Positions 12,835 through 53,693 of a DNA stretch of 64,000 bases are shown in pieces (position 1 is the first letter of the stretch; each line of letters starts with the position of its first letter). A model generated the notes under the pieces. It worked only from the letters and a program-made list of their open reading frames with translations. It was not told the origin of the DNA and made no database searches. The DNA is from Dudresnaya verticillata (Eukaryota): contig OZ374557.1 of NCBI GenBank assembly GCA_977862235.1, positions 1,550,001-1,614,000 of the forward strand, in the 5' to 3' direction. The position numbers were made by a program, and so were the translations under genes.

Positions 12835-12838
12835 AACT
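12825..12838 (-). promoter_or_regulatory. Copia primer-binding site complementary to the anticodon arm of initiator tRNA-Met (half-tRNA priming)
   Basis: Minus strand reads AGTTATGGGCCCAG directly after the LTR, against the Drosophila copia PBS GGTTATGGGCCCAG. Confidence 0.85.
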
Positions 12839-13997: not shown

Positions 13998-14004
13998 GAC
14001 CCCC

Positions 14005-26439: not shown

Positions 26440-26440
26440 G

Positions 26441-28696: not shown

Positions 28697-31600
28697 TTAG
28701 GTGTGTGTGACTCGCGTCAGTTTCCGCCGACGCCGCGCAGATGCTGCGGCAGGGCGTTTGCGACTCCAATAGCGGCGAATAAAATTCTGTGGCAACTCCT
28801 CGGCGGGTTCATACGTATCCTGGTCTGGTGGGTAGCCGTACCAACGCACCTTGTCGGTCATGTCCGTGGGTTCTTCGCGGTGTCCCACGATCTGCTCGAT
28901 AATATACTCCGTGTCGGCGTCATTTGTCTCCGGAACGGGAGCAGGAATACCGCCTGGCGTTTGGGGCGTTACAGTAATACCACCTGGTGTTTGGGGTACT
29001 ACTGTGGTGCCTCCCGCCTGCTGGGGTACTGTAACGTCCACGTCGGTGTGTGGCGTAACCGGCGGAGCCAATAGCGGCGCCGGTTGCACGGGAACTACAA
29101 TTGGTACCTTAGTGATGCGATCGATGCTGATGGGAATCAGGACGCCATCCTTCTTGATAGTGACTACAGTATCCGTTGCGGTGTGCACCTCGTAGGGGCC
29201 CGTCGATCTTGGGAGGAGCTTCTTCATTTGCTCCGCAAATTCACCGACGTGGTCAGGGCCTTGACCCAATCGGACGCGTTCCTTTCGTTCGGTGGGTCGT
29301 AGATTACGCGGTGGGCGATCTACGTAGACTTGGTCGCCACCGCAAACCACCGGTCGGAAACGCACCTTACGGTCAAAGAGGGCCTTAGACTTCAACTGGG
29401 CTGTAGTCAGTTTGGTCTGCGCCTTCTGTAGGGCATAGCGCAAACGCCGCATGGTTCCCCTCTTTTGGAGCACGGGCGTCATACGCCCCTCCGTAACGGT
29501 TTCTTCCAACTCCATAGGGGTGCCACGCACAATAATATCCGATGGGTGTCGAGTTAACACTAAGTCAAAGGGAGTAGTATCCGTAATCCGGTGTATCTAC
29601 ATATTATAGGAGTAGGTCAACGGCTGTAGGTATAAATCCCAATCGGTGTGGTGATCCCCGACGTAGTGTCGAAGGCGCTGCGCGATGGTTTTGTTAAACC
29701 GCTAGGCTTGTCCGTTGGTTTGCGGGTGGTAGGCAGCGGTCAGCCAATGCCGCACTCCGAGTAGGGCACAGACAGCGTCGAAGAACTTCGCCGTGAACTG
29801 TCTTCTATTGTCGGTGAGTACAAATTTTGGTGCGCCATACGCATACACCCAATGGTCTAAAAATGCGTTCGCCACCACGACGGCTGTAATCGTCCGTAAC
29901 GGAATGCACCGTGTTAGTTTAGAAACCCGATCGGTGATGACCAGTACAAAGACGTATCCCCGTTTGGTTTTCGACAGCGGGCCCAGTATGTCCGTAGCGA
30001 CAAACTCCAGTGGGCCACTGGCGGGAAATAGCTTCATGAACTTCTGATGCTTAAACCGCGTGCCCTTGGTTTTGACGCGTGAGCGGCAACTCCGAACGGT
30101 CTCGAATACATCGTTAGCCATATGTGGCCAATAGTAGTCTCTCCGTAAGGTGTAGTACATCTTAATTCCACCAGAGTGTCCCGACATCAGGATGTAGTGG
30201 GCAAGATACAGGACCCTGCCGCGCATCTGTTGCGGTACCACGTTTTGGAGTGCACCGTCGAGGGCAGACTTGCGAACAAGAAACCCATGTCGGTCGTAGT
30301 CAAATTGTGATCCTGGGGATCCCACCGATTCGGCTTTAAGCTTGCAGAAAGTATCCGTTGCTTGCGCGGCTATGAACTCCTCACGGGTAAGGGTCTCATT
30401 TCGCATATCCTCTTGTTGGATGACCGTTTGCCGGAGTGGAGTGGGTGGTACTGTATCCTTTTCAGGCGTAGTATCCGTTTCGGTGGCTCCACTTTCAACG
30501 CCTAGGACAGGGCTGCTTGCGGCATCAGGCTGCTAGATCTGTTTCCAATTGGTTAGTCGCACACCATGTGGTACTACACCATTAGGAGTCGATTACATAA
30601 CGAAGCAAGGCACTTCTTCATCCAACTCAGCTTTGTCAGCACCACCTGTTCGGAGTCTTGACATACCGTCTGCGAGTTGGTGCTTGATACCAGGGCGGTA
30701 CTGTACTTCGAACTCAAATTCCGATAGGCGTAGGCGCCATCTTGCTAAGCGTCCAGACGCATCGGCTAAACTCAATATCCAGCGTAATGCGTCGTGATGC
30801 GTACGGAGTATAAACTTTTCACCATAAAGGTAGGGGCGTAGCGTTAGCATACTCCAAACTACAGCAAGGGACTCCTTTTCAGTGGTTGTGTAACTCTTCT
30901 CCACATCGGTTAGACTTCGGCTGCAGTAACCCACTGGTAGGTTATCTCCACTACGTTGCTCCTGGAGAAGGACACACCCAACTTGGTAATCACAAGCGTC
31001 GGTATCCAACGTATAATTGAAACCATGACGGGGTAAAGCCAATATTGGAGGGGAGATTAAGTGTCTCTTTAACTCCTCAAAGGCGTTAAACTCCGTTTCG
31101 GTGAGAGTTCCAAACTCGAATACCAGACCCTTGCCGGTTTTCTTATTGAGTGGCGAAACAATACGTGAAAAATTGGGAACGAAGCGTCGATAGACGTTAC
31201 ATAATCCTAGAAAAGAGCGCAACTCCATTTGGTCTGTAGGGGGCTTAGCCTCCTTGACGGCGAGAATATTCTTCCGTTCCACTTCCAGTTGGCCCGGGCG
31301 CACTATGTGGCCCAGATACTGTACAGAAGTGTCGAAGAAGGCACACTTCGATAATTTCAGAGTTACCTCTGCGGAACGGAGTAGCGTGGGGACCTCCTTA
31401 AGGTGTTAAAAGTGCTCCGTAACGGTATTTGAATATACAATCACATCATCCAGGTATACTAAGGCAAATTGCCATTTCACCGTGGATAGGATGATGTCAA
31501 CCGCTCGTTGGAAAGTAGCGGGTACGTTCTTGAGCCCAAAAGGCATTCTCCAGAAGCGGTATAATCCATAATGACTGGTGAAGGTAGTTTTGTCACGCTC

Positions 31601-33100
31601 CTCCTCGGGGATCACTACTTGCCAGTAGCCGCTATTACAATCCAGAGTAGTGAATACTGTAGTTTCTCCAAGGGAGTCGATACATTCATCCATCCGGGGT
31701 AAAGGGTATGAATCCCGAACGGTGACAGCGTTAAGACGCCTGTAATCGACAGAAAACCGCATGGAGCCGTCCTTTCTAGGAACGAAGACCACAGAGCTGG
31801 CCCACTCTGAAGCGGATGGCTCGATCACCTTAGCGGACAACATACGATCCACTTCTGCCTTCTCCAGCTCGCGCTGTTTATGTCCTGCCCGATATGGTGC
31901 TTGATATACCGGTTTGGCACCAGGCATTAATTCAATACGGTGTTTCGCGGCTGTTATATTTCCTAACTCGCCGTTCCACATAGTGCTGAACTCCTCGAGG
32001 AGTGTAATCACCGTAGCGCGGAGTTTTTCATCCTTGGCACCAATAAGGATGTTATCTTTCCAGTCGGTGTCAGGGGTTGTAGTTGATTCCGATACGGTGT
32101 TGCCTTTGAATCCATCTTGGGGTGTAGCCTTGCTGCTTTCATTAGGAGGAGTAGGAAAGGAATTAATATGTCCTCCCCCCTCCTTAAATGGAGGTACTCC
32201 GTTAACGGTGAGTATGGCAGAGGGAGCAGCAGTAGCGAGGCCCATGACGGTAGACTTGGGTAACCGCACCGGTTTGGGGGAAAATTAGTCAGCCACACCT
32301 TAAAGGGTTTGTTAGGGATGATATCCATAACCCCGTTAGCCATAAGGGTGAGGTGCTTATGGATGGGTTTGGGATGCTTTTGAAGAAAACACAAACCACC
32401 GGTAGGAGTGGCGACCAATGCAAGGGATTGGGTCATAGGGGGAATAACAAGGGATTGTGCTAGTCGGAGCTTTTGCGATACCGTAGCGGATGAAACAGGG
32501 GGCCCTGAAGAGTAGAAGCACCGTTTTGGAGTGTCTGAGTTGTCCCATTGGCGAAACCGGGGCGTGGTGATGAAAACAACTTTCCGTGTCGGTGGGAGGA
32601 TCGCCTTGACATGGCGAGCAATAAAACTGGTTCCCAGAATACACGGAGCAGCGAGGTTCGCGACCACCAGGAAGTGGACTCGAGTACGCAATTCTCCGAT
32701 ACGGACAAAAAGCTGAATGACACCAAGCGGGCGTATCGACCTATTGGACGCATCCCGTAAAGGTGGACTGGCAGCGGGGCGAATCAAAGACAACCAGTGG
32801 CGTGGAAGCCGTCTGGCGTTAATGAAATTTGGCTCAGCACCAGAATCCAATACGGTGACGAGAGGTAACATGAGGTCATTACTTCTTCCCGCAGTAATCT
32901 GGATTTTATAATTCTGCCGTTGTAGAAAACAGACAGAATCACCGGGTAGTGGAAATTCAAGGGGAATTTCTGGAACAAAATCAAGGGGGTACTCCGTAAT
33001 GGTGGCGGGCTGACAGTCCGGCAAAGCCCGTATTGGTGGGCGTACCACGTCGCATTGAGGAGACGGGGACGCCCTTTCACGTCTCCTGCGACGTTTTCCG
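28697..33100 (-). pseudogene. pol: Element A pol (PR, dUTPase-like domain, RT, RNase H, integrase, chromodomain)
   Basis: LDSGAEPN, YLDD, TDAC, TDILGP, TDN, HPQTNGQ, GPY, chromodomain YIIEQIVGH...VRWYGY...TYEP. Disrupted. Confidence 0.94.
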
Positions 33101-35659
33101 AGTCGGGGTGTGCCATGAGTGCCTCCTCTACCATATCAGCTGGGGGCTCGTCAACCGCACCACCATCGACAGTCAACACGCGCGCGGGGCGTTGCTGGTA
33201 GTTACCCGGCGGACGATTTCCCGTATTGGAGTTGGCGAAGGCCTGCCGCTGGAGGAGGATCGCCTGATAGTTGGCTCGCGTTCTTCCATCAAGGGACCCC
33301 TTTCGGTGTCGCTCAGATACGGACAAATTACGTGGTCCGGGGAGAGGCACAAGCGACAGTAGCCACTTGCATAGAGGCGTCTGATATCCGGTGAGGTGTG
33401 ATCCGTATGCTCTGCGGCAGGGGGTTGTTTTCCAATACGGTGTTCGCCCTGCCCTTGACGGGGAGGCGTGTTGCCGTGGGGGTGTCCAATATGGCTGGGA
33501 TGCTGCCCGATGGTTCCTTGACGGTGTGTGGCGGGACCGTAGCGGCTATCAGCCGGTCCGTAGCGGGGTTGCCGGAGTGGTTGCATCCGTGGCGCTGGGG
33601 GGCGTAGGTTAGGCGTCCGAGGCGGAGTAGGGTAGACACTACTGGGTGGGGAAGAGTACGCTGTAGTAAACGTAACCCCCGACGAGGTGCCGGCGCTGCG
33701 ACCCGCGCCACCTTCCAGAGCGAGCACGTGCTCCTCCGATTCAACGGGATACTCCGAGTAGGTGTACGCCGATGGAGAACCAATCGACGGAACGCCAGAA
33801 CGTCGTGACGTCTTCGGTGTTCCGTCGAAGACGTGCACCGCTGAGGTTTGGCGTCTGGTTGCCCGATGGGATTCTCCAAGCCCTTTAGCGTAGCGGGTGA
33901 TGGCTTGGTAATCCATATGGGGGGGTGTTGCCAGATAATTGCGCATCTGCTGACACGTTCCCGGTAGGAGTCCTTCCACAAACAGCGACTTGAGGGACCT
34001 GTCGGAGAATACTGTACCGCATCGGAGTGCCTTAGTCCAAAGTTGGTTGGCGAATTGCTCTTCCCTTAAGGCCGACGTTTGTCGAAACGACGTTACGTCC
34101 GAATACCCTTCGGTAATTACCTCATCGGTAGCAGAAGTCCTTAGCAAAACGTTCAACACTTCGGTATAGGTACGAAGCATCTCTGCTTGCTCCTCGTCGA
34201 TCGCCATGGTGCCACCAGCGAGACGGGCCTGAAGCAAAGCTTCAGCCTGTCCACTTAAGAAAAACTGGAAACACCACAGTGCGGTTCCTTCCGAAATGGA
34301 ATTGATGTTACACGCATCCTTGAACTTCGCGAGAAATCCAAGGACCGTGATGGGGTCTGTACCGTTAAAGGAGTGGGACTTCATTTGTACCTCCAGCTTT
34401 TTGCGGATGCGTCCCATATTCTGGGACAAGCTAGAGCTGTAGTATGAACTCTTTTTCTCCAGTCGGTATGTTCGGAAATCCAGCGCCTTCACGAACCTGT
34501 CGTTCAGGGGCCGGATTACCTTTGGGAGTGGCCTGTCGAACTCTCGGTGTTTGGCGTCGTGTTTTCTGGCCCGACGCCGCTCGTCCCTATCCGTATCGGA
34601 GTAGCTCGTATCAGAGCCAGAGGAATGGGAGGAGTCATGCCTTGTTCGGCGCCTATGGCGGGACTTGCGCTTTTTCTGCTTCCTATTGCGGTGTTGGCAA
34701 TCATCAGATTCCGTACCGGAGTGTTCTTTGTCCCGTCGTGAAGTGCGTTTGCTCCGTTGCGAACGGTCACGTTCCTTATCGGAGTGGGAGTCCTTGGCCC
34801 TTCTGACAGCACTGTCTCTACCACTCCGGGCTTGGTTTTTCTTGGAGTCACCCTCGGAGTGCTCACTGCCTCTACGCGATGCCACCGGCACGGTGATACG
34901 TTCCCCCACAGGCACTTCTGCGGGTCCAGGGACCGTACTCCGATTCGGTTGGGGTTGGTGTGCTGGATACAATTCGGTGTATTGAGTTTGGGTAGGTAAC
35001 CAAGGGGCTGCCGCTGTCCTTACCGGATCGGGCGGAAACACCTGAGTGGGGATTTCTGTCATTTACGTCGTTTATCCCTTGACCGGGAAGTTATTCCGTA
35101 TCGGTGTAGGTCCAGAAAAAAGCTGCTCCTTGGGTCCCGGTAGGGGTTGTCCGGGGATGAGCATCTGCTCGATCTCCGATGCCTGACGCTCCTGACGGAT
35201 GAGCGTCTGTACCAACTCCGGAAGGTGTTTCTCCAGGTAGGAGCTAACAATGACCGGAACGGTGTCAGCGAGCGTGGTCTCAACCTCCTTGACCATGTTG
35301 GGCTGCACCTCTATACGGAGATGCTCCAACAGCCGTGGGATGACCTCCAAAAGTATCCAATGGACACGATTGGAGTCACCTGGCTTGGATACACCCTTGG
35401 GGGAAGTGTCGGAACCAGGTCGGGATCTATAGAGCTTACTGGCTACACCTTTAAGGAGTTCTTCGGGGTTCTCCATACCGGGGTTCAGGTCGGCAGCATC
35501 GCCACGGCATGTTCTCGTGGCTGAGGCTACCTCCGGTTCGGTAGGCTCACTGCGGCTTGTTCTCGCAGTAGAGGGCACCTCCGGGACGGTGTTATCGTCA
35601 CCGCGGCGTGATCTCGCGGTTGACGGCACCTCACCTTGATCCGATACGGTAGGGTCCAT
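33070..35659 (-). pseudogene. gag: Element A gag
   Basis: ORFs 35072-35659, 33173-35062 and 32784-33350; FNGTDPITVLGFL capsid-like region; CRLCLSPDHVIC knuckle; homologous to gag of C. Confidence 0.88.
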
Positions 35660-35823
35660 GTGTTCTCCTATTCTTAGGTTACCAAAACGGAGTCAACGAG
35701 TGTTTTGCCTTGTCCTGCCTTTACACCAATACGGAGTTGTCACAAAGCTCACCTCCTACCGAAGCGGAGTCCCACGGAAATTCTTCTACCTTGACGGTCT
35801 TCTAGGTTGGGAGACCAAAACGA

Positions 35824-36498
35824 TGTGGTGAAGTGAAAGGCACACCTGTAAGGAGAGCTGATCAGGAAATCCCAATAAGGAGTGATCTCACACGGCACCG
35901 GGGTGGTAGAGCTTAGTTCGTAGACCGAAGGGAGTACCTCGAGCGGCAACGCCTGTAAGGAGTAAAGGGACGCAACAGACAAGGGGGACGGTACAGTGCC
36001 AGGGCAGCTACACCGGGACGGAGGTAGGAGGAATCGGTGCACGGGGCTGGCGAGGGGAAACCGTGAAGGAGTATGAGGGTAAGGCTTAGGGTAGGTCACT
36101 TTGCCCAGGGTTGCGTACCCGTTTACTGTAGGACTCGCGGTGGCCACCCATTAATATACTGGGAGATAGGCCCCGCGGTCCGGTCCGTGTGGGCCAGACC
36201 CCAATGGGTCTGGTCCACCAGGTGGGTCCGGCCGTACTGGTCCCGGTCACCGTTGCGGACATGCTCGGCATTCTCGTTGGCCGGCTGACACTACGTACTG
36301 TACAGCATGATTACAATTACCTAATTACAAATAAATCAACTACTTGGCTCCTATTGGTGGTGCGCGCAGACTCCAGCAAGGCGTACAGTGCTACTGTGGC
36401 GCTGCACTCCCGTTCGGTGTTTGGCGCCAGCTCACCGGTGCGCCGGTCGCGAGTCGGCTCAACCGTCGTCGGCACTCCACAACGGCCACTTCACTACA
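35824..36498 (-). repeat. Element A 5' LTR
   Basis: Matches 13315-13997. PBS at 35800-35817. Confidence 0.95.
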
Positions 36499-36899
36499 CC
36501 GTCACCTCAGTGCACAGGTGCCGTCTCGGCCGTCGACGGCTCGTGAGCGTTGCGGCTCACGAGTTTGCATCAGCCGATTTTTATGGTGAAGTGAGATTAG
36601 GCATCCAAGACGGTGGAAATGCATATAGTGTGGTCTCTACCGTTGTGAGACGTGTGAACGTGTATCCGTGTTGGTATTGTGCGCATTGCTGTACGCTGGT
36701 ACGCATTTCTGTACAGCAGTGTAGCGCACCAACCATACCGGAGTATTTGTAGTATTTATTCTTTATTTTTAGTGAGTATCTGTACAGTTTGAAGAGTAGC
36801 GCGCCAGCCAATGAGAATGCTGCGCATGTCCGTGTCGGAGATTGGGACCAGCAGGGCCGATTCCACCATGGGTCCAGACCACTAGGGTCTGGCCCACAC

Positions 36900-37799
36900 T
36901 GTGGTGCAAGGGGGGTGAGCCCCTTTTTCGCTGAAAGCGGAGCAACAAATATGTCGACCGATGGAGAAACCGCCACCGGCGCTCACCACCGCCGTTGGCG
37001 CGCGAACAAGTCATCGACGGCTCACTGGGGCGCGCGCGCACGTTGCGCGCCGCGCGCCATGCGGGCACTGTACGGTGATGGGCCGACATGGCGCCCCGGG
37101 GCACTGTAACACGGATCCAGATGGGATCCGGATCCGGTATCCAGATTGGCTATCTGGATCGCCTGAGCTGTAAGGTATGCGCCTATAAGGCTGCGAGTGT
37201 TCGCATTGCTGGCCCGGATCCGGATGGGGATCGGGGTCGAACAAGTATCAGATTAGATCAAGGGCGCACGCTGTACAGTACACGCGCGCGCACAGCTGTA
37301 AGGCACACGCGTCCACGTGTGTGTAAGCGCCCACGCAATGCGTTGCGCGGCAACCTGTCAGGCGCGCGGCTGCATGCGATGGGTGATCTGTCAGACGCGC
37401 CTCGGGACGACACGTGTCCCAAGTTCCCGCGCTACGCACACGCACCGCCGCCACCGCACCGCCGTACTATACTTAGGTAAGCCGTCCCAGACGTAGCAGT
37501 AAACGCCCGGACAAGCCGGCCTTGGTCCAGACTTCCCCGTTCCGCACGCGCGTACCCTATCGCTGCCTACGGCCTAAGCGTCTACCTCCCGTGCTTCCAC
37601 GTCGCTCACCGTCCTTGACGTGTTTCCTTTTTGTTCCCTTTTTCCTTCCTTTCCGCCTCGGGCGTCTACAGTCCGCCCAAGACGTGTCAACTGCTCTACC
37701 ACAAGCCGCCCAAGACGAGGCTACTCACGCCACTGGCGACGCTACCCACCGAGCCCCGAACTGCTCGGCGGTGTTTCATCTTCAGACGTTGGCACCACA
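36900..37799 (+). mobile_element. Solo Gypsy LTR inserted in the 5' LTR of C
   Basis: TGTGGTGC / GCACCACA ends and TSD CACAC. Removing it restores the sequence seen (reverse complement) in LTR 43754-44429. Confidence 0.92.
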
Positions 37800-38310
37800 C
37801 ACACGGACCGGACCGCGCAGTGCCACCTTGACTCGTATATCAGGGCGGCACCACAGCGACTCCTAAGGTAAACGGGTAAGCAACCCTTGAGCCTCAATTC
37901 CACTGTAGCTCTTTCCTTTACGGTTTTCCCCGCGCCGAGCCCGTTGCGGTCTACCACCACCACCGTTACGGAGTCCGTCCCGGCACTTGTACCACCCCGT
38001 TGTCTGTTGCTTCCCAACGTCCGTTTCGGTTAGCCGCTCGCTGTTCTCCCGTCTCGGTGCGACCTGCTCTACCACCCCATGGAGGTAGCGTCGATCTCGT
38101 CCCGTGTAGGAAAGTTAGGCCAGCTGTCCGTTACGGAGTTCATGGGTTTTCACCACACCACATCTTTTGGTCTCCCGATCTAGAACACCGTAACGGTTGG
38201 AAGAAACAGCCGTCGAAATCCGCTACGGTAGGAAGTCGGCTGTACCGACAACCCGTTACGGAATATTGGATATACAAGCAAGAACAACCGTTGTGTTCCG
38301 TTAAGATACC

Positions 38311-40788
38311 ATGCAGAACGAAGAACACGCAGACCCTCCCGTTACGGAACCTAAAGCGGGTGAAACTACCTCCGCTGCGCGCAGTCTTCGCAGTGAAGGA
38401 GGTGAAATCCGTTCCGGAGTGGAGAACCCAGAAGACATCCTTAAGGGTGCTGCTGGTAACGCTCCCAGTTCCCGTGTCGGATCAGACGCCTCAAAGAAGG
38501 CAGCTCCGCAACCCAAGCCGGAATCTCATCGGGTCCACTGGGTCCTGTCGGAGATCCTTCCTAGGGTGTTAGCGCATCTCTGATTGTAAGTACAACCTGG
38601 AATGGTAAAATAGGTGGAGATATCCCTCTCGGAAACTGTTCCATCTTTGGTTAATTCCTATCTGGAGCAGCACCTTCCTCGGATAGTGCAAGCTTTGATC
38701 CTACAGGAAAGGTGGCCGCCGAGCTCGAGAGCCAGATTGCTCCCGGCATGGCAAGGCCTCCCGCTACGGAATGTTTCACTGAGCAACCACCGTTACGGAA
38801 TGACCTCCCGGTCGAGGGAAGAACGCAGCAGCCGCAACAACCCCCCTTTATGGGATTACAGCCGGGTACAGTACCCTCTGGGCAACTGCCACCGGCTCCC
38901 GTAACGGATTCTCAACATCAATACGCCCCTACGGGACCAACACACACTCAGCCACCTTCACGGTATTCTCCTGGACACGTAGATGTGCCTACGCCAGGGC
39001 GCTATCAGCAAGAGCGCTATACCGTTCCGGTTCGATCAGGTGGAGGCAGCGACCATCTCAGCGATGCGTCCAGCTCACCCCATCTGAGTCGGAGGACCGG
39101 TCGAGGTCAGCATAAACGAGATGCCCGACACTCCCGCTCTGACCCGCCCCGTCGGTCGCACATGGGCGACCACACCCAGCGACGACGCCACCAATCCGGT
39201 ATGGAATCCAATGAGAGCAGCTCAGGGGATAGCCAACACCGCCGCCGCAAGAGGAGAAACAGAAGATCGCGGAAACGCGAAAAAAGAAATGACTCCTCTA
39301 CCTCTACGGATTCAGGCTCAGAGAATTCCTCCGTAACGGATAGAGAGAACAGGCACCGGGGCAGAAAACACGGTGCCAAAACCGGAAAGGTGAAGGTAAT
39401 CCGGCCGCTACATGACAAGTTTGTCAAGGCGCTGGACTACCACACCTACCGATTGGGTAAGAGGAGTAAGACGTACGGCTCTAAGTTCTCATAAAACATG
39501 AGCCGTATACGGAAGAAATTCGACGTCCATATGTCATCTCATACATTCGATGGGACGGACCCTATTACTGTCTTGGGATTTCTCGCCAAGTTCCGTGACG
39601 GTTGTAATATCAATGACATCGCAGAAGGGGTTGCCGTCTGGTGCTTCCAGTTTTTCCTAAAAGGGCAACCCAAAGCCCTTCTACAGCCTAGGCTTGCTGG
39701 AGGTACCATGGCGGTTGATGTGGAACAGGCTAAGATGCTCCGCTCTTACTCCGAGGTGGTGAATTACTACTGAGGACTTACGCTACGGATGAAGTGATCG
39801 CTGAAGCCTATACGGATGTCAACAATTTCAGGGAAACATCCGCCATGACGGAAGAACAGTTCTCTAACCAACTCTGGGCAAAGGCTCTCCGCTGCGGTAC
39901 TGTATTTTCCGATCGGGCATTGAAGTCACTGTTCGTCGAGGAGCTCCTACCTGGGACGCGTCAACAGATGCGCAATTATCTTGCAACACATTCCCAGCTG
40001 GATTATCAGGCCATAACTCGCTATGCGACTGCCCTGGGTCAGTCCCATCGGGCAGCTCGACGCCAAACCGTTCCGGCTCACGTCTTTGATGGGCGCACTA
40101 AAGCGCGCCCGTCTAAGGTGTTATCACTGGATTCCGTATCGGATGTACACTATGAGCCGCACGGGAATCTTTTCGCGACGCATGCGCAAGTGCTAGCCGT
40201 CGAGGGAGGCCACAGTACCGTTACTGGAACAAGTACGGGGGTTACCTTTTCAACCCCGTACTCTTCACCCCGCAAAGCGTGACCCCTACGCCACCCAGGA
40301 TGCCACGCGCGCAAGTTCCCCGCTATGGTGTATCTCGCCCGGCTCATGGCCCCCAACAGCAGCCAAATCACTGTTACGAAAATAATGCCCACGATGGGCG
40401 AGGACAGCAGCAACCAGAACCTCCGCTACGGGATGAGTCGGATCCTCGGGTCCGATGCCTTTACGGAAGTGGCAATTGCCGCATCTGCCTTTCCGCCGAA
40501 CATTTCGTTTGCCCGTGGATAAACGACGCCGATCGGGTTAAGCTCATGTAAGAGCGTGAGCGCAACTTCCAGAGGCACTACCCTGTAGGCCGCGGGTTGG
40601 TCGTGGGAACCAGTTCGAATCCGCAAGGGAATCGGGGCAAACCGCAAACGCCCGCTCCGTAATGGAATGCCCCGGTATTATCGGTGGAGGACCATGGCGG
40701 AGAGGAATACGCGGAATTGCGCGAGCCCATGGAAGCGGATCCGACTGGTGCACTCTTGATTTCGGAAAACTCAAGGGGGGACACGTAA
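38311..40788 (+). pseudogene. gag: Element C gag
   Basis: ORF fragments homologous to A gag (FDGTDPITVLGFLAKF; CRICLSAEHFVC). Multiple stops. Confidence 0.88.
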
Positions 40789-43636
40789 GGGCGCCGCCAT
40801 CCCCGCCTCACGGCGTTCCACCTCTCGTGAGTGTGGACTCGCCCGGGGATCGGCAAGATACCGTTACGGAACTCCCATTGGCTTTTCAGACCAATAATCC
40901 TATATGTGTTATGCAACAACAAAATTATAAGATTCAAATTACTGTGGGACGGACAGATAGCGTGGTGCTTCCTATAATCTCCGTATTGGACTCTGGCGCG
41001 GGGCCAAATCTCATTAGTGCCAGGCGACTTCCCCGTCAATGGCTACCCCTCATTCGCCCCGCCACCAGTCCTCCGCTACGGGATGCATCTAATCGTGCTA
41101 TCCGCCCCCTTGGTCAGATCCAACTTTTCGTCCGCATCGGAGAGCTCCGTGCTCGCATCCATTTCCTCGTGATCGCGAACTTAGCTGCTCCGTGTACCTT
41201 GGGGACTACCTTCATCGACCGCTACGTGAAGGCAATCCTCCCTCCGTTATGGAAAGTTGTTTTCCATCATTACCCACCGGTAGCCCTTGTTGGTCAAGCC
41301 AAAATTCCGAAGACGGGAACCACTGCAACCGTACAGCCCTCACCTCTTTCTACCGCTACGGTTTCTCAGAAAATTCGTTTAGCCAAATCTACCCTTATTC
41401 CCCCTATGACTCAAACCACCGTAACGGTTAATACCCCACGGGAGGGTTATGCTTTCTACACAATCATCCCAAGCCGGCTTTTAAGCACCTTACGTTAATG
41501 GCTAATGGTATTATGGATGTTGTACCTAATAAACCGTTTCGGATCTGGGTCTCTATTTTCTAACAAACCGGTACGGTTGCCCAAATCTACTGTCGTGGGC
41601 CTCGCTACTGCTGCCCCTTCTGCTATTTTTACCGTTGACGGTATACCTCCATTTAAGGAGGGAGAGGAATTATTCAATCATTTAATTCTAACCTTGCATC
41701 TGAAAAGGCCAGCAGCATCTCCCCTAATGACAATGAAGTAGGTAAACCCGTAACGGAAACTACAAATATTACCGACTGTAAGGATCAAGTCCAGATCGGT
41801 ACAGAAGAAGCATCGCTCCGTAAACGGATTTTAGCCCTACTCGAGGAATATAAGTCGATGTGGAGTGGCGACCTTGGCAACATTACAGCTGCCAAGCACC
41901 GCATCGAGTTAACGCCCGGATCTAAGCCAGTATATCAAGCCCCATACCGCGCCGGACATAAGCAGCGAGGTCTCGTAAAGACAGAGATCGATCGCATGCT
42001 TTCCGCTAAGGTAATTGAACCAGCCTCATCGGAGTGGGCCAGTCCCGTGGTTTTCGTTCCAAAAAAGGACGGCACCATGCGGTTCTGTGTTGACTATAGA
42101 AGGCTCAATTCCGTAACGGTTAGGGACTCATATCCCTTGCCCAGGATGGATGAGAGCATAGATTCCCTTGGGGAAGCTACTGCATTTACCACCCTGGATT
42201 GCAATAGCGGATATTGGCACGTCGAGATTCCGGAAGAGGAAAGGGACAAAACTACCTTCACTAGCCATTTTGGCTTATACCGTTTTCGGAGAATGCCATT
42301 CGGATTGAAACATGCACCGGCAACCTTCCAACGGGCAGTGGATATAATTCTTTCTACGGTTAAATGGAAATTTGCCCTCGTCTACCTAGACGATGTAATT
42401 GTCTACTCAAAAACCGTTACGGAACATTTCCACCACTTGAAGGAAGTCCTTACGCTTTTACGATCCGCTGGGGTAACGTTGAAATTGTCAAAGTGTGACT
42501 TCTTCAACGCGTCCGTACAGTACCTGGGGCATGTTTTCCGTCCCGGAAAATTAGAAGTGGATAATCGGAATATCCAATCAGTTAAGGTCGCGAAGACGCC
42601 GACTAACCAAACGGAATTGCGGTCCTTCTTGGGAATGTGCAACGTGTATCGTCGCTTTGTACCCAACTTCGCTCGGATTTCAGCACCGCTGAATAAGAAA
42701 ACCGGCAAGGGCGCACCCTTTGAGTTTGGAATATTATCCGATACGGAATACGAAGCCTTCGAGGAACTGAAGAGACGCCTTATCTCTCCACCTATATTGG
42801 CTCGACCCCGTCACGGATACAAATATACGTTGGACACTGACGCATGTGACCATCAAGTCGGCTGTGTCCTTCTGCAGGAACAACCGAATGGCGACCACCT
42901 CCCTATTGGATACTGGAGCCGAAGCCTCACCGATGCGAAGAAAAATTATACGACAACCGAAAAGGAATGCTTAGCCGTGTTCTGGAGCATGTAAACACTC
43001 CGACCCTACCTCTACGGTGACAAGTTTATTCTCCGAACGGATCACGATGCCCTGCGGTGGCTCCTGAACCTCGCAGACTCATCTGGCCGCCTAGCCAGGT
43101 GGAGGCTCCGCCTATCGGAATTTGAATTTGAAGTGAAATACCGTCCAGGAATTAAGCATCAACTCGCCGATGGGATGTCGCGACTCCGAACGGATGGCGG
43201 TGACGTTAGACCTTTGGATGAAGAGATACCCTGCTTTGTCGCCGAAAATACCGTCGACGGATTATATGAGCATGGAGTTTATTTAACCGATTGGGCCACA
43301 TCACAAGAAACCGCTACGGAAAATAACGTAATATGCGCCGTGGAGCCCGCCAGTGGGAGTGCATCCGCCTCCCCTGATAAGCCCGACGCAATACCGTCAC
43401 GGTTTACTGTAATCCAAGAATCCGACGTTAAGGATGAGACAATTACCAGGGAGGAGTTCCTTGCAGCGCGAGCCAGAGACCCTTTCTGTCGTCTCAAAGC
43501 CGATACGGTAGGCTCCCCTGGATCACAGTTTGACTATGACCGTAACGGATTCTTGGTACGCAAGTCCAATTGGATGGTGCTCTGCAGACGGTGGTGCCAA
43601 GCGAACTCCGTGGACGGGTATTTGCACTTATCCCAC
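40760..43636 (+). pseudogene. pol: Element C pol (PR, dUTPase-like domain, RT, RNase H, start of integrase)
   Basis: LDSGAGPN, YLDD, TDACD, EKECLA, ADGMSR motifs. Truncated. Confidence 0.92.
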
Positions 43637-43753
43637 GCACGATTGCCGACGAGAGCAAAAAACCCATATAGACGCTTCACACAATCGGTCTCATCGTCCG
43701 CTCGGCTCCCGCGTCGTCAAACACGACTTCATCGTGTGCGAGCGGTTGACGGC

Positions 43754-45670
43754 TGTGGTGTAGTGAAAACCCACGAACTCCGTAACGAACAGCTGGCCTA
43801 ACTTTCCTACACGGGACGAAACCGACACTACCTCCACGGGGTGATAGAGCAGTTCGCACCGAGACGGGAGAACAGTGAGCGGCTAACCGAAACGGATATT
43901 GGGAAGCAACAGACAAGGGGGTGGTACAAGTGCCGGGACGGACTCCGTAACGGTGGTGGTGGTAGACCGCAACGGGCCCGGCGCGGGGAAAACCGTAAAG
44001 GAAAGAGCTACAATGGGATTGAGGCTGAAGGGTTGCTTGCCCGTTTACCTTAGGAGCCGCTGCGGTGCCGTCCTAATATACAAGTCAGGGTGGCACCGAG
44101 CGGTCCGGTCCGTGTGGGCCAGACCCTAAAGACCCGGACCCATGGTGGAATCGGCCCTGCTGGTCCCAATCTCCGACACGGACATGCGCAGCATTCTCAT
44201 TGCCTGGCGCGCTACTCTACACACTGTACAGATACTCACTAAAAATAAAGAATAAATACTACAAATACTCCGGTATGGTTGGTGCGCTATACTGCTGTAC
44301 AGAAATGCGTACCAGCGTACAGCAATACGCACAATACCGAGACGGATACACGTTCACACGTCTCACAACGGTAGAGACCACACTATATGTATTTCCACCG
44401 TCTTGGATGCCGAATCTCACTTCAGCACAGACCCCCCTCCTTAAATGGTGACACGTCCTCGTGCGCCCAAGTTAACGGAGTTACTGCTAGGGTCCGCTGA
44501 ACCGTCAGCGGGTTCGAGCAGCTTTTCCAGGTCTCGCGTCAACTGCTCTACTGCCGTCACGGTTTGCTTCGATGCGTTGCGAAACTCCACGCACCTCCGA
44601 TACCATGACGACCGTCACGTAGAATAACCGAGACGCGCTTGACGCGAGTGGCGTGCTCATCCCCAAGGGATGCCGGCCCAGACCGGTCGTCGTGCTCTAG
44701 CCCATAAACGATCCGCAACGGGTTCCTCCCGTATGTCAGGGGAGCAGACACTAGATCTTGTCCCACTTTCACCGTAACGGGGTTGCAATCCAGGCACCTC
44801 GCAGACAGCCGCATTTGCAAACATTCGACATGGGGGTCCTACCACACCTAAAGGAGCAAACACCTTTGGATAGTGTTGCTCTCACCGTAGCGGAATAAGG
44901 TTCCCAACTGTCTGCTCGAACGCGCAGTCGATTACGCTCCCATATCCACAATGGACAATTAGTATTCCGATCGGACGACGGTACCTCACACCAGCTATCC
45001 CCTGACGGAAGGTGTTCCGACTTGGGTGGCGAGAAGCTGGAGGGCTAGGTACGCCACAAACCGGCGCAGGCGGCGTGTTTCAGGAATCCGTAGCGGTTAC
45101 GGGCGAATACCTTCACCCCTGCCTTTATTAGACACACTACGAACCCCTCCCTCTTGAGATGAACCCAACCCGCGACGGTGATAATATATTGTTATCGATG
45201 TAATAATATATTGAACATTATATAAAATATTAATATTAACATCAGTATTAACATATACCCCGGGACTCTGAGAAGAATAATAGGACCGAGGAATTTTCCT
45301 GTACCGTCGCGGAAGAGGCCGTTCTTGGCCCAAACGTGCTGGGCGGCCACCTATGGCAAGAAAAAGGCGTGCCGCTCCCGGAAAGGTCGACGACGAACAC
45401 CGTTGCGGTGGCTGACGGGGTGTTCAGAGCGATTTCCGTGACGGAAGAGTGCCGCGTAAGCGGTGGAACCTTGGCAGAGTACGCCGGCTGCGATATTGCG
45501 GAAAAACGAGAGTACCGTTTTGGGAAATGGGTCCCGTCATCAGCAGGGTACGCGACCCTCGCTGGCAAAATCCGTGACGTAGCGGTATGCCCCATGGGGA
45601 AACTGCAGTTTGAACAACAACGACATCCCGTAACTGTAGCAGGCGTCGACAAGACGCAGTTCCCGTAACG
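43754..45670 (-). mobile_element. 3' fragment D of a C-family Gypsy: 3' LTR (43754-44429), PPT (44430-44446) and 3' extra region
   Basis: The LTR is a reverse-complement match to the C LTR. PPT ATTTAAGGAGGGGGGTC is the same as in A. Contains CCGNTACGG motifs and an AT-rich island like A. Right boundary is approximate. Confidence 0.85.
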
Positions 45671-48600
45671 GGGTCGCCACATCTCGGGGAGTATCCTCCC
45701 GCAGCGGCGGGGGACAGTAGAAGGCGCGGTCCGCTGCGATGCGTTCGACCAAGCCGCCTCTGTCGATAAACAGCGTGCGCTTGTCACTAAGCAGCACGCG
45801 GTAGGGCCCTATCGCTGGGCTCTGGAGCTTCTTGGGTTTCTTAACCCCGTCGCTCGCGTAGGTGAAGACTTAGTCTCCCGATCGAATGCGGGAGTTGACT
45901 TTTCTGACATGCTTGTCAAAGTCTTTCTTGTAACGCCGCTGCGTTTTGTCGAGAGCGCTCGATGCGCTTGCGAAGGCGGCGTCGAGCCGCTTGAGAACCA
46001 CGCGCACGTCCTCACTAGGTTTCGGTCTGGCCGCTGCCTTATGAAACTTAGTGAACTCCGGCGGCGGCCGGGACAGCACGAGGCTGAAGGGTGTCGTCCG
46101 CGTCGTGCGATGGATATGGCAGTTGTAGGAATACATCAGCGCCGCTGCGTATCGATCCCAGTCGTCGTGGTGATCGTTGATGTAATTCCTCAACATAGCC
46201 ATGACGGTCCGGTTGTAGCGCTCAACCTGACCGTTCCCCTGCGGGTGGTAGGCGGACGTGAACACGTTGTTCAGTCCGAGGTAGCGGCACACTTCCTGAA
46301 AGAACTTTGAGGTGAATTGCTTCCCGTTGTCCGACAACATAGACCTCGGTAGTCCATAGTGGAAGACCCACCTCTCACAGAATACTACTGCGACGTGGTA
46401 CGCTGTGATGGTGCGCAGCGGCGCTACTTGAGTCAGCTTCGTGAATCGATCCGTCATGACGAGCAGGAATCGCTTTCCTGACTTCGTCTTGGGCAGCGGC
46501 CCTAGGATATCGATCGCGAGCGACTCGAGCGGCCTCATGGCCGGGAACAACTTCAACCGATAAAGGGACCTCCGCAAGCGTATGCGGTTCCTGGCCCAGT
46601 GCCGACAGTTCCGAACGGTCATGGCGATGTCTGTTGACATGTGTGGCCAGTAGTAACTCTCGCGGAGCGTGTAGAACATCCTGTTCTGGCCAGGATGGCC
46701 AGCCAGGAGGGAGTGGTGCGCGAGCGTGAGAAGCCGCGGCTGAGCGCTTCGGGCACCACTATTTGCTCCAACGAGGAGATGACGGGGTAACGCCGGCACA
46801 AGAGCCTGTCCTCGTCCTCAAAGAAGTGGCTATCCCGTCGACGGGACTGCCGTGCCAACACCGTTTGGCAAAAGGAATCGCGCCGCTGCGAATCAACCAA
46901 TTCTTTGACGGTTATTGGTGAAGGGAGCTTCACCGGTTCGACCCGGGTGAGGTCCGTCGGCTCTTGGCTCGCGTCGATGCGGCCGAGGTCGAAGAGGTCG
47001 ACGTCGTCGCAGTCATCCCAGGCTTCGTCGTCGGCAAGCCCCGGCGGCTCGTCGCTGTCCGATGGCTCCTTGGCTTCGCTGCCATTGCCACCCACTGCAG
47101 CCGGTCGATCCGGCGCCTTCCGCGTCGACGCGTTGGATTGGGACCGCGTGGTCAGCAAGACCGGCGGTGCCTTGGGTTCGGTACTCGAGGCACCCTCCTT
47201 CTGGCGGTCGACCGCCGGGGGGTCATAGGTAGGGACGTCGTCGTCAACCTCCTCTTGCTGCCGTCGAGGCCTCACCAGGCGGGACAGCGCGTCCGGCACC
47301 TGTTGTACCCTACCCGGGCGGTACTCGATCTGGAAGTCGAATTCCGCTAGTCGCAACCGCCAGCGGGTGAGGCGACCGGACGAATCGGTCAAGGATATGA
47401 GCCAGCGCAAGGCATCATGGTCGGTTCGTACCGTGAACCGGGTCCCTTCGATGTAGGGACGCATGGTTGTGATCGACCACACCACTGCGAAGCACTCGCG
47501 CTCCGTGGCCGAGTAGTTTCGCTCCGCTGAGCTTAGTGAGTAAGACCAGTACCCAACGGGGTGTAACTGGCCGTCCTCTTGCTCCTGGAGCAGGGCGCAT
47601 CCGAGCTGGTACGCCGATGCGTCCGTGTCGAGGACGTACGGATTCCTGTCGCGAGGGAGCCGTAGGATAGGAGGCGATAAGAGTGTCGCTCGCAGCGTCT
47701 CGAATGCCTCTAGCGCCGCTGCGCTTGGATTATCGAAATTCACATCCGCATCCTTGCGGGTCATATCCGTCAATGGACGAGCGATCTTCGCGAAGTTCCT
47801 GACGAAGCGGCGGTAAACGTTACACGCCCCGAGGAACGACCTCACTTTCGTTAGGGACTTCGGGAGCTGCGCATGGCGGAACGCGTCGATGCTTGTCTTC
47901 GTCATGCGCAGTTTCCCCGGCTCGATCACGTGACCGAGGTAGTCCACGCGGGACTGGGAGAAGTGGCAATTCTTCAGCTTCAGGGACATGCCGCCCTTTC
48001 GAAGCAGAGTCAGCACGCGGTCTAGGTGACCGACGTGCTCCGCGATCGACCGCGAGAATATGATCACATCATCGAGATAGATCAAACAACACTACCATCT
48101 AACTCCGCTGCGTATGATGTCCAGTGCACGCTGGAAAGTCGCAGGGGTATTCTTCAGTCCGAAGGGTATCCTTAGGTAGCGCAACGTCCCTAGGAACGTC
48201 TTGAACGTGGTCTTATCCCTGTCAGCCGCTGCGACAGGGATTTGCCAGTACACCGCGTTACAATCCAGCGTGGAGAAAATGGCAGCGTCGCCAAGACTAT
48301 CGATACAGTCATCCATGCGTGGGAGTGGGTACGCATCACTCAGGATTTTGGTGTTAAGACGTCGACAGTCCACACAAAACCTGAGTGTGCCATCCTTCTT
48401 GGGCTCCAGAACGACTGGCGATGCCCACTCCGACGTGGCGGGTTCGATTACCCCTGCACGCAGCATGGTCTCGACCTCGTTCTGTACGAGCTTCCGCATA
48501 GCGGGGCCCTGTCGATAGGGCATTGAGCGAATCGGCCGCTTGCCGGGTTCCACGTCGCTGTGGTGTTGCGTAGCGGCAATCGTGCCTAGCCTGCCGTCCC

Positions 48601-49990
48601 ACATGGACTGATGCTTCCGAAGCATGGCGAGGACTTCTTCGCGGGTGACCTTGTCTTCGATAGAAGAAAGGTCCACCTGCGACTCCCAGTCCTCGGTGGA
48701 CTCTCCGTTCTCCGCAGCTGCGTTTGCTGCTCCTTGGAGCTTTGTGGGCTCAGGGCCCCTTGCCATCGACGGCGTGACTTGGCGTTCATTGCTCCCCTTA
48801 CCCCTGGGCCGCTGCCCTTTGAGGGGAAGGGTGGTTATAGTCATCACCCTCCCGAACTCTTCCGCGACGTCGCGGTCCGGGGTTATCAGGACGACTGGGT
48901 TGCGGACCGCATAACCAACCACGGTACCGTTCGGTAGTGTCCGGGCTGTGTCCGTCCAGTTGCCCAAGATAACCCCGAGGGGTCGCCCCGGCTCGATGTC
49001 GTGCACCTCATTGGTCAGTCTCACGCCGTGGCGGAACTGCAACGAGGGTTTGGGATCCGTGTGGATCAACCCACTGGCCCCCGACGTCACAGAGACGAGC
49101 CTCTGCGAGTAGTCTGGGGCAACCACCTGCCTAGCGAGGCGTATGGTGTGGGTATCGTGATCCCAGTCGAGGAGCTCCCGCTGGTGCTTCTTCGACAAAC
49201 CCTTAGATGGGTTCTTCGGCTACGTTGCCGGACCGGTTTCCCTCGCTAGGGTTCCTGCAGCTGAGGATTGGCACCGAGACTCCTTTCCTCAGCGTCAGCC
49301 TTCTCAAATCGACGTCTATTCCGCGCACGTGCGCGTTGATAAACTGCGTGCCTATCAGTACGTCGACCGCGAGCGTGTCGGCGACGATGAAAGACACGCG
49401 GAACGTCGTGTTCCCCAACCTCATCGAGAGGTGGACGACGCCGGACAGCCTCAGCGGAGTCTTGTCGGTGCCTGCCAGGCATGGCGCGGAGTCGATCTCT
49501 GACGCGTTTTACTCCCAGCCTGTGGGCAGGGCACCTCGAGCGATGAGGTTGTACCCGGAGCCGGTGTCCACCGCGATGGTGTGTGTATCATAACCCGCGG
49601 GTCCGCACCGAGGGACCCGGACACTCGGTAAATCTCGGAGGACAGGAGGGACACGTACACATCGGGGGTAGTGGCCGGCTCTGCGTCGATGCATGGGGCC
49701 CCGGTACCCTCGCATCGAGCGTCGGGTACCGCCTGTCCCGCTATCGGGGAGCTGCACCCTTTCCGCCTGGCCTGCCGTCTGTGTCGACGCCGCGGCGGCC
49801 AGGGTGGTTTGGTACGCGTCGCCCGCGACGTCCCGTCGACCGGGGCGTCGTTCGTGTCCTTCGAGGCGCCGCTGCGCTCGACGTGGGGGCTCGCTGTCCC
49901 CAACGCCGTCGAAGGTGAAAGGGACGGTGGGTCTGGTGTTGGACAAAACGGTGCACGCGACCGCACGAGCGGCGCCGCCTTTATTCTTTT
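45670..49990 (-). pseudogene. pol: Element E pol
   Basis: VDTGSGYN, YLDD, TDAS, IDILGP, SDNG, ERYNR and GPY motifs. Disrupted. Confidence 0.92.
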
Positions 49991-52418
49991 TCCGGATCGA
50001 CCCGGTCAGAATTATCCTCGGAATCCGAACTTTAGTGCTCGATTCCGATTGGGTGTTTCGTAGCCCCTGAGGCGCCTCGCGTCGATCGCGGACGCGTGTC
50101 AAAAAGGAGAGGGGAATCGCTTCCCTGCCCGCTGGCTGTCTCTCCTTTGTGCTGCACATCAAGCGCTTGCGGAAGCCACTCGTCGGCAGTGAAACCGGTG
50201 TACTCCTGCACTGTCATAACTGCTCGGAGCAGTTCGCGGCGCGGGTCGGCCCTCGGAGGCATCGATGCCTGAGGTTGACGGCCAGCGGGCTCGTCGAAGC
50301 CGACCCGCTTATCGCGCAGCAGGAACCGCGGTGCATCGCCTTGGCGGTACTCGCGGCGTGGGTCTCGACGATCCCCGCGGTACCCCTGCAGCTCTCCGTG
50401 GTACCTTGGGGCGCCCATGCGCTGCGGTGGACCTCTCGCGTCGAAGCGTCGGCCCCCACCCCGCGGTGCGTCGTAGCGCCGCGCGGGGTTACTTGTCCTT
50501 GCGCCCGATGGCGCGCTCGTCGTCGCTCGTCGAGGAGCTGTTGGAGCATATTGCGCGAATGCGGCTGCGTTTCCATTCAATGGTTGCAGTTCGCATACGC
50601 GCAGTACGTCTGCTCTTCCTTCATGAGGTACGGGCACGAATACATGATGTGCCCGACCTCGCGGCAGAACCAGCAGATGTACCATCCCTGTCGATCAGAT
50701 GACTGCTCGTGCCATCGCCTCCTGCGTTGGAGTGAGCGGTGGTATGCGCTTGGGTAGGACCGCGTCGATGCGTCCTGTAATGTCCAGGGTCTCGACGGCC
50801 TCGGTCGATCCGGCTGTCGATAGCGCGGGTGCGACCATCACGGGTTCGAACCTGTGGGCGTCGGGGTCCACCAGCATTGTGCTGTCGATAGCAACGTCCC
50901 CGCTGGGATAGCTTGGTCGGCCCTCGATGAGCAGTGTACGGCCGCTTGCCGAGCTGCCACCTGACCTGCCGCGCCCCGAGGTGTTCGTAGGCTGCGCTTC
51001 CTTTACCGAACGGGCGCGGTAGGTTGTGCCCTCGCTATGGGCAATCCGACGAACCGTACTAAAATTGGTCTGTTCGACCATAGGCAGCTGCCTTACCTTC
51101 TCTGCCACTGCGGGTCTTGTCGTGGGCAACAGGCCCCGAAGGAACTGATGCGTGATGCTTCAAGTTCTCATCGGAGTGCAGGCCAGCGTAGGCGTCCGAA
51201 TACCCTTCGAGGCGAGTGGCGAACTCAAGCTCGGACTCGGCGTCCTTCTGCTTGGCGGTGGTCAGCCGATCATGGTCGTCTGCAATGACGTCGTCCGTGA
51301 CGAACCTCTCGATGAGGGTATTGACCACCGAGGCCCAACAGGGTGGGTGCCGCGCTGCGTTGTGCGCACCCCAGAGAACAGGTGACTCGAGTACACCTGC
51401 AACGCGGTTCCATCGAGGAACCAGAACACCACACGCGCCGCTGCGCCTTCGGATAGTCCAACGCCATTGAATGCTTGGCGTAGCTGTCGAAGCACACCAA
51501 GCAGGCGAATCGGCTCCTTGCCGTCGAACCGGTCGAGCCGGGGCATCAGGGCCTTCATGCGGCTGACAATCTTCGCAGTGTTGCCACTACACACCTGCTG
51601 TTGATTGTCCCGCTGATCTACGTCATCAAGACGGTACGAGCGGTAGTCGATCGCCTTAGCGAACTCTGGCACCAACGTGGTCAAAGGCTCGATGCCTGCC
51701 ATGAGTGGGCCCCAATGCCAATAGGCAGAGACGGGCCCTCGTGCTGTCAGGGGGTCGGTTCCCCCTTTGTGTTTTGCCCGTCGAGGGCTTGTTGGAGCAA
51801 CCTGGGGTCGACCCCGTAGAAGGGATTGAGGGTCCCCACTCGGATGGTGCGACCCCGCCACACTCCTCGGTGGAGATGGTGGTGGTGAAGGAAAGCGATG
51901 CCGAGCTCGTTGCTCGGCAAGTATGGCAGCGGCCAATTCTTGAACTGCACCCGCTGGTGACTGCGGTCGCGGAGGAGAGCGCTGCGCCGACGACGGGCCT
52001 GTAGCCCGCTGGCGTTGCCGCGTCGACGCGCGCTCTATCAACTCAACGCGGCGGCGTAGCTCATCGAGGAGCCCCTGTGACCGGGTTATTCCGTCCTCGA
52101 TGGACGCCAAAGGACCGCGTCGAAGCGTGTCCAGGTCTTGCTGGCTGTCGGCCTTCGCCGCAGCTATCGAAGCTGTAAGGTAGTCGTACACCTCGGCTAG
52201 CGAGTCCATGGTCTCCTCATACAGTAGCTGGAGGTCGGCCACCGAGACCAGACTGCCGGCGAGGGCCTTTTGCAGCGCGGCCCTCGCTCGGGCCTCACAT
52301 CGTGTAGAGGAGTACCTGAGACGCCGATGGTACTCAGTATTGAGGTGCGACGCGTCGCGTCCTCAACGTTTCCGGCAGCGGCCGATGTGGCAGCGGGCGG
52401 GTCAGGAGGACTCGACAT
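49981..52418 (-). pseudogene. gag: Element E gag
   Basis: FDGKEPIRLLGVL capsid-like region and a CWFCREVGHIMYSC knuckle near 50630-50675. Frameshifted. Confidence 0.85.
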
Positions 52419-52485
52419 CCTTTACTTTGATCGTGTCGATGCGAGAAGTACTTGGTTCTCGACGACTTCTAGGTCGGGATACCAG

Positions 52486-53258
52486 TGTAGTATAGACGTC
52501 GGGTCGATCCGACGTCTGATACTTGCTAGTCCGAAGCCGCCACACGGACCCGTCGATGGGTAGCTGTTGGGGTTGGTAGAGCGGTGTCGGCCTCGTGCGC
52601 CCCGCAGGTGCAGATCGACGGCGTCCATGCCGGAGCGCGCACGGGGCGTACCGTACGCGGGTAGGCAACGGCCGGATCCCAGCATCCCTGTCGAAGGGCG
52701 GCACGAAGCCGACGGAAAGGAAAAGGAAAGGGGAAAAGCCTAGCGAGGCAAGGGAAAAAGGGAAACCGCCCGCTGGCGTAAGGCAAAGGGATCGAACCCG
52801 AAAAGGCTGGGGCAAGCTTCAGCGCGAGCTGTTGCTTGCCCGGTTTACTGAGACATCGATGACCGACGGTCTTAAATACCCTACACTATGTGCACTACGA
52901 CTACTTCTACAGTAGGTGCGCCCCACAACACCAACGCTGGAGGTGTGCGAGCGCACGCCCATACACGTGTCGACACGTCCGGGTAACGGTTGCCCGTGGG
53001 GGCGCGCGGGGCGTAACGGGCAGCGGCCCTCTCAACGGCTCGACGCCGGAGAGCGTCACAGGGGCGCGCCGTGTGCGGCACGGCGCGCGGCCGCTGCCGG
53101 CAGCAATGCGGTCGACCGCTACTAAATCAACGAAAAAACTAAGGGCACGCTGCCCAACGACGACTCGCCAGCGAGCGTCATCGTGTGCACCATTACAGTG
53201 CAGGGCTGCCAGCATACCTTACAGCCGCCGCTGATAGTGTGCTGACAGCTATACTACA
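52486..53258 (-). repeat. Element E 5' LTR
   Basis: 10-bp terminal inverted repeats, adjacent PBS, homologous to solo LTR 6985-7820. Confidence 0.92.
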
Positions 53259-53469: not shown

Positions 53470-53693
53470 CTAATGGCTGCCCGACAAGTGTGGGCACAAC
53501 AAGTACTAAATCCGTGAGTACGGAGTTAAGAAATTGGCCAACAACTGGCTATTGAGGGCCTGAACAAGCATCCCGTGGCCTGATGTATTCGTGCGTACGG
53601 AACAAGCTCATTGGCTCACCAGAAAAACACCACACCCTTGGTGTATTGGTCCGCGGCCCCCGTATATGGCTTGATAATTGATTCAGAGAATGA

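Follow-up and report, generated by a model that had tools for sequence, protein, structure and literature searches.

A dyad motif coats one clade of Ty3/Gypsy elements

We analysed 64,000 nucleotides of Dudresnaya verticillata (assembly GCA_977862235.1, contig OZ374557.1, positions 1,550,001 to 1,614,000 of the forward strand; hereafter the window), which self-alignment and Pfam resolve into a nest of retroelements: a DIRS-like element, a Copia element and five Ty3/Gypsy elements (A to E), all of them carrying stops and frameshifts. In the Gypsy clade of the sister elements A and C (79% identical in reverse transcriptase, RT), the palindromic dyad W-CC-N5-GG-W recurs every ~80–85 bp across long terminal repeats (LTRs), genes and untranslated regions (UTRs). 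The pattern is real, broader than a first-pass annotation of the window had reported, and strong and unusual whatever the reader. It may be, at somewhat less than an even chance, that each LTR retrotransposon family carries a private whole-body barcode read by its own protein, a self-recognition and anti-silencing code that occurs about twice per nucleosome repeat, rewrites the coding DNA of RT and integrase, and diversifies like the dialects of uptake sequences.

The 9-mer CCGNTACGG is found 44 times on both strands of the whole window, as compared to 2.28 ± 1.27 expected (none of 100 dinucleotide shuffles reaches 44). Of these copies, 24 are in C, 13 in A (27260–35641) and five in 43754–45700, a C-family fragment that we call C-prime; the only two outside A, C and C-prime are at 1789 and at 53721, the latter in an A/C-type LTR piece. 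Within the window the motif is restricted to one clade. The first-pass annotation had given 24 copies for C and about a dozen for A and had noticed none in B or Copia; our counts agree, including none in B or Copia, and all the copy coordinates it quoted are exact. The four copies (44772–45663) that it ascribed to D belong instead to C-prime, which has a fifth at 43945; D proper (~45700–53060) has none, so the reassignment sharpens the family specificity. The features of the A/C clade are as follows.

36584 to ~43635, plus strand: element C, Gypsy, truncated in integrase
36584–38162, plus strand: 5' LTR of C, interrupted by a nested solo LTR; 13–19 dyad sites/kb in both pieces
36900–37799: solo LTR of another family within C's LTR (TG...CA, 5-bp target duplication)
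38163–43635, plus strand: internal region of C (gag, protease, RT, RNase H, start of integrase); 10–15 sites/kb per part
37963–43548: the 24 exact CCGNTACGG copies of C, two of them in the LTR and the other 22 internal; they form the strongest class of the W-CC-(G)N3(C)-GG-W dyad
43754–45700, minus strand: C-prime, a separate C-family fragment with 3' LTR (43754–44427), polypurine tract (PPT) and 3' UTR; five exact 9-mers; 11–16 sites/kb
27204–36498, minus strand: element A (3' UTR, chromodomain-integrase, RT/RNase H, gag, 5' LTR); 13 exact 9-mers; 9–13 sites/kb per part
35824–36498, minus strand: 5' LTR of A
13315–13999, minus strand: 3' LTR of A, separated from the body of A by nested B; 10 dyad sites/kb
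53689–54206, minus strand: A/C-type LTR fragment, 74–84% identical to the LTRs of A and C; one 9-mer (53721); ~10 sites/kb

The LTR of C-prime is 93–95% identical to that of C by self-alignment. Element A shows the features of a Ty3/Gypsy chromovirus: LTRs, primer-binding site and PPT, the order protease-RT-RNase H-integrase, and a Chromo match above cutoff (E 2e-8). The chromodomain of C is unseen, as C ends within integrase.

Palindromic expectation maximization gives the consensus W-CC-(G)-N3-(C)-GG-W with graded flanks, so that near-invariance is limited to CC and GG at spacer 5 and does not extend to the eight fixed bases that had been described. Among single-base neighbours of the 62 WCCGNNNCGGW sites, core variants are at background level and inner and flank variants are common. 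The spacer is strict: in their internal parts, A has 35 copies of CCG-N3-CGG, C has 34 and C-prime has 10, as compared to 0–8 for the other spacers from 0 to 12. GG stands at spacer 5 from 240 of 518 WCCG versus 29 of 390 in E and B together, and orphan WCCG half-sites are unenriched (8.07 versus 7.85/kb).

A weight matrix for the dyad finds 9.3–19.3 sites/kb in all 15 parts of A, C and C-prime (LTRs, genes and UTRs) as compared to 0.6–2.0 sites/kb in B, D, E, Copia and the left end; the densities of A and C are partly circular, since the matrix was trained on these two elements, and C-prime and the LTR piece at 53689, outside the training set, show matching densities. The solo LTR nested in C's LTR is an internal negative control, with 0 dyad sites in 900 bp.

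Related families carry other motifs

The other elements of the window are given below.

14005–27203, minus strand: element B, Gypsy, inside the PPT of A; 0.7 A/C sites/kb
45701–53060, minus strand: element D, Gypsy, without its 3' end; barcode GCMGCKGC and no CCGNTACGG
from ~54200, plus strand: element E, Gypsy
7930–13229: Copia
1338–5595: DIRS-like element

Three motifs are found in three families, as the idea of different motifs in different co-resident families had it: the dyad in A/C, YGGCCR in B and GCMGCKGC in D. B has 150 YGGCCR sites (132 in its internal part versus 44.6 expected), and D has 18 GCMGCKGC in its internal part versus 1.2 expected, which is sparser than the motif of A/C or B. 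B and D are related to each other (61% identity in RT). The A/C-type sites end at 45667 and the D motif begins at 45702. No strong motif was found in E, Copia or the DIRS-like element.

We note two side observations on base composition. D is also rich in TCGA (40 versus 28.6 in coding DNA; 0 of 1000 shuffles). GGCC, the core of the B motif, is depleted in A (27203–35823; 20 versus 43.8) and in C (38163–43635; 13 versus 28.6), which may be a by-product of their inflated CC and GG counts or a case of cross-avoidance.

Codon usage, RNA structure and duplication

It is hardly credible that the motif arose from a preference for certain codons or peptides, from hairpins in RNA or by tandem duplication. 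A coding origin could draw on the preference for one frame (12 of the 15 coding copies of C, giving TVT-like peptides) and on the sense-strand bias of the 9-mer (31:11); the strand bias parallels a general excess of CTA over TAG (~2:1) in A and C. Shuffling synonymous codons leaves the motif far above the null, with 15 CCGNTACGG versus 0.88 in the coding DNA of C and 12 versus 1.20 in that of A (0 of 1000 shuffles reach either count), and the same null is exceeded by TGGCCA in B and by CAGCGG in D. The LTRs and UTRs have the same density as genes; dyad density is equal in RT/RNase H and UTR, so the motif is not confined to non-coding DNA. No protein cost is seen in RT/RNase H (rare residues at 8 of 52 positions in sites versus 48 of 339 elsewhere).

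As for RNA, the flanks show no Watson-Crick covariation in any of six tests in A/C, which rules out a cUACGg or triloop hairpin there; in B, one of six tests is nominally significant (p 0.014). Rfam has no match in 27000–46000. A tandem origin is likewise ruled out, as the flanks of the C copies have a mean identity of 0.25 and none of 10 tandem rows contains the motif array.

Spacing and conservation of the sites

Gaps between sites are more even than random in all three elements with dense sites: their coefficients of variation are 0.73 in A, 0.65 in C and 0.73 in B versus 0.88, 0.87 and 0.92 under the null (P 0.016, 0.001 and 0.001, respectively). The mean gap is 82 bp in A/C and 87 bp in B. 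Very close pairs are avoided, with a single WCCN5GGW pair 11–20 bp apart (12.3 expected) and nine YGGCCR pairs 6–20 bp apart in B (26.0 expected), and none of 300 token shuffles is as low in either case. No deficit is seen at 21–60 bp or for control words, and the sites show no helical phasing of 10–11 bp.

The sites also appear to be kept. Between the pol regions of A and C (71% identity), 22 of 40 CCN5GG sites are common to both as compared to 7 of 23 CCN4GG. At four-fold silent sites the core is kept in 11 of 18 cases versus 28 of 84 for other G/C (p 0.035), and in the reverse direction in 11 of 15 versus 28 of 67 (p 0.044), although this test is small and marginal. The conservation excess in LTRs is small (5 of 12 versus 2 of 7). 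The 3' UTRs of A and C-prime have diverged almost past alignment, yet they keep their layout and 11 sites/kb each; with sequence little kept and density maintained, sites are thus replaced over time at a steady density.

A mutational or repair bias could build sites without selection on the element, for example a methyltransferase together with biased mismatch repair as proposed for cyanobacterial HIP1, and we regard this as improbable. It could call on the core columns, whose differences between LTR copies are fewer than naively expected (9 versus 19.4, an ascertainment-biased comparison), and on the cores of all three motifs, which are C/G palindromes resembling methyltransferase sites. Against it, near-miss cores have neither an excess nor a deficit of C-to-T changes, and graded flank preferences and exclusion within 20 bp are unexpected from a point-mutation bias. 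The nested inserts without the motif also argue against any local process acting after insertion. The effect of CpG in LTR pairs is mild (25 of 379 versus 43 of 1047 in other contexts).

A proposed dimeric DNA-binding protein as reader

Taken jointly, the readings of the dyad as a protein site are very probable. The proposal of a dimeric site on double-stranded DNA, already made in the first-pass annotation, is backed by the exact-spacer dyad, the lack of half-site enrichment and of hairpin covariation, the exclusion below 20 bp and the conservation at silent sites; together with graded flanks and an even, saturating density, these features point to a dimeric binder under selection for coverage. 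The motif would seem to resemble Zn2Cys6 sites and restriction-enzyme sites.

Among these readings we favour, with a confidence not far short of even, a family-specific dimeric reader that is supplied by the element, coats it evenly and plays an anti-silencing role. Such a protein would occupy the dyads of its own family; better-covered copies would replicate more, and sites would thereby accumulate by point substitution. The reader would probably be encoded by the element family, and an even coat is predicted to shield the element along its entire length from host silencing. That the reader is element-supplied and anti-silencing is suggested by analogy with VANC and TnpA (see below) and by the motifs being private to families.

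Candidates for the reader were sought among the open reading frames (ORFs) of the window. B has a long, broken antisense ORF (~14980–18590, plus strand) that lies between pol and the 3' LTR and has a basic low-complexity N-terminus, a Trp/Tyr-rich middle, a coiled coil and a Pro-rich tail; it is our best candidate for a reader of YGGCCR. A has an antisense frame at 27964–28707 (plus strand; 248 codons, two stops, a Cys-rich stretch) that begins right after an AT-rich tract, and C-prime has, after its own AT tract, an unrelated open frame of 138 codons (45252–45668). The Gag N-terminal domain common to A and C has two relatives among 1.84 billion representatives. Two matches in Gag, Reb1_MybAD (E 8e-4) and DUF2497 (E 0.11), are below cutoff and were set aside.

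Several observations weigh against an element-supplied, anti-silencing reader. No reader protein was identified, in searches whose sensitivity is low on broken and divergent ORFs. A and C-prime have no 3' ORF in common, the Cys-rich frame of A is unmatched in C-prime, in Pfam and in a protein database search, and for the B antisense ORF no homolog was found and the predicted model is uninformative. For the Gag domain of A and C, the predicted structure is a single long helix in which no DNA-binding fold can be recognised (predicted local distance difference test 65). An antisense frame in E (62980–64000) is open for at least 199 codons to the window end, yet E has no motif. The ratio of observed to expected CpG is ~1 in Gypsy and DIRS elements, barcoded or not, so there is no footprint of protection from CpG methylation, and the silent-site support is slight, as noted. 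The evidence comes from one window in one host, and the nearest precedent, VANC, differs in several respects given below. Since no reader was found and A and C have no extra ORF in common, we infer the function from the pattern. The element-specific recognition system that had been proposed is sustained as to family-specific motifs; the tie to an extra ORF is not, given A and C-prime without a common 3' ORF and the E frame without a motif.

A reader need not be an accessory protein. The family integrase or Gag might bind the sites on cDNA so as to protect it, import it into the nucleus or integrate it, in which case the drive would be self-recognition in replication, comparable to the drive behind bacterial DNA uptake sequences, and not an epigenetic one. 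No extra ORF is required by this explanation, which we consider rather unlikely. Integrases normally read LTR ends only, and nucleocapsid has little specificity in its binding of single-stranded RNA; besides, 79 related loci with the same enzymes (see below) are without such a dyad. It does predict whole-length, strand-symmetric and even sites whose entry into coding DNA favours certain frames, as described for bacterial uptake sequences (PMC2817400).

Related loci

For comparison we used 85 related loci (one viral, 80 of at least 591 metagenome stretches, and four from genome bins) with RT 36–61% identical to that of C. The dyad scan covered 79 loci (six shorter than 2.5 kb were left out), and for the tree 81 loci were available, ~77 of which passed the length filter. 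None of the 81 loci falls within the A/C clade, so the comparison at the DNA level covers relatives outside it. No comparable palindromic dyad was found in the 79 loci: their best dyads have log10 P of -13 (simple repeats only) and otherwise -8, versus -21 to -22 for A, B and C. The A/C and B motifs are not enriched among the related loci, and the D motif is at most weakly so in one distant clade. A search of the extra ORFs against the 85 loci found nothing.

These comparisons bear on a further explanation, that each family hijacked a different host DNA-binding factor (an activator, an insulator or an anti-Polycomb factor) under the same selection for even coating, the reader being a host gene. 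We hold this unlikely, though it is the strongest of the alternatives to an element-supplied reader. It accounts for the absence of a common extra ORF in A and C, for the restriction of the motifs to the elements of this host among those examined, and for locus L083, whose RT is 62–65% identical to those of B and D and which has neither the B nor the D motif. It would, however, require three host factors for three motifs, two of which are in the related B and D, and private motifs would seem a better fit to private readers.

Only one of the best 120 RT relatives is a eukaryote-named protein, from Agarophyton chilense (61% identity), which suggests a red alga as the likely host. Four relatives known as proteins only (P0001, P0049, P0104 and P0117; 68–70% identical to C) have z of 2.9–3.7 for the peptide footprint of the motif, with the linkers PVTD, PATD and TDTD. 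Judged by these peptides, this is only a hint of the motif outside the window: the trend across all 120 proteins does not reach significance (Spearman p 0.51; top 11 versus the rest, p 0.087), and some distant proteins also score ~3.

One Gypsy clade among the loci (L005, L009, L013, L031 and L048) has weak dyads, GGCN4GCC, GCCN4GGC and GTCN4GAC, with log10 P of -5 to -8, which may be the same phenomenon in a faint form. We also note that L082 and L083 are contigs with a red-algal-type Gypsy RT inside bacterial genome bins, likely by binning contamination.

Comparison with known systems

VANDAL elements, Arabidopsis Mutator-like elements with the VANC anti-silencing system, each carry many copies of a short motif that is specific to the family and differs between related families (PMC5735166); binding by a cognate protein, as proposed here, would be a further likeness. 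VANC21 recognises YAGTATTAY in non-coding regions, and it is through tandem repeats that these motifs spread; they are asymmetric 8–9-mers of DNA transposons (PMC5735166). Here, in contrast, dyads lie in LTR retrotransposons, evenly through coding DNA and not tandem-derived, and the reader is putative. The barcode works like a cognate-motif system, yet outside the VANC family; VANC itself likely derived from MAIN-like proteins (PMC13547354).

Spm families have family-specific motifs of 8–10 bp that co-diversify with their lineages, and the transposase itself can activate cognate copies (10.64898/2026.08.24.746577). In this self-activation by Spm TnpA or the AtMu1 transposase, the reader can be a core enzyme without an accessory ORF. 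These are DNA transposons with high-density motif clusters, and the main text of that source never mentions LTR.

The DNA uptake sequence (DUS) and HIP1 are also lineage-specific short motifs that run through coding DNA in preferred frames and shape peptides (PMC2817400, PMC13756078), and HIP1 has quasi-periodic spacing as well (PMC13756078). Dispersal in coding DNA, frame bias, even spacing and conservation are all found here. DUS and HIP1 differ in belonging to whole bacterial chromosomes and to transformation, whereas here the unit is a retroelement family and several motifs share one genome.

Retand elements with TRP28 have antisense ORFs of unknown function (PMC11963269), which the long antisense ORF of B resembles in its position between pol and the 3' LTR and in its coiled-coil part. 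The Retand repeats are tandem arrays (PMC11963269), and A and C have no antisense ORF in common; no Pfam match to TRP28 or the plant mobile domain was found in the pieces scanned. As to silencing in red algae, PRC2 is described as repressing transposable elements in Cyanidioschyzon merolae (10.1101/2022.10.24.513474).

We found no earlier description of family motifs that run through the whole body of LTR retrotransposons, although a repeat-database note or a supplement could hold one. Counter-silencing through cognate motifs has been described for plant DNA transposons, and a family-private code in LTR retrotransposons, if true, would carry this arms race over to Class I elements and into red algae. 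The three motifs are defined baits for finding readers, and they make the persistence of retroelements in repeat-rich algal genomes testable.

Other elements of the window

The DIRS-like element (1338–5595) has an RT and flanking 197-bp direct repeats and no barcode. By eye we presume it to have a methyltransferase-like segment and a tyrosine recombinase, both likely and both without a Pfam match. The Copia element is the sole element with low CpG (observed/expected 0.66), and it is young, as its 392-bp LTRs differ at two positions.

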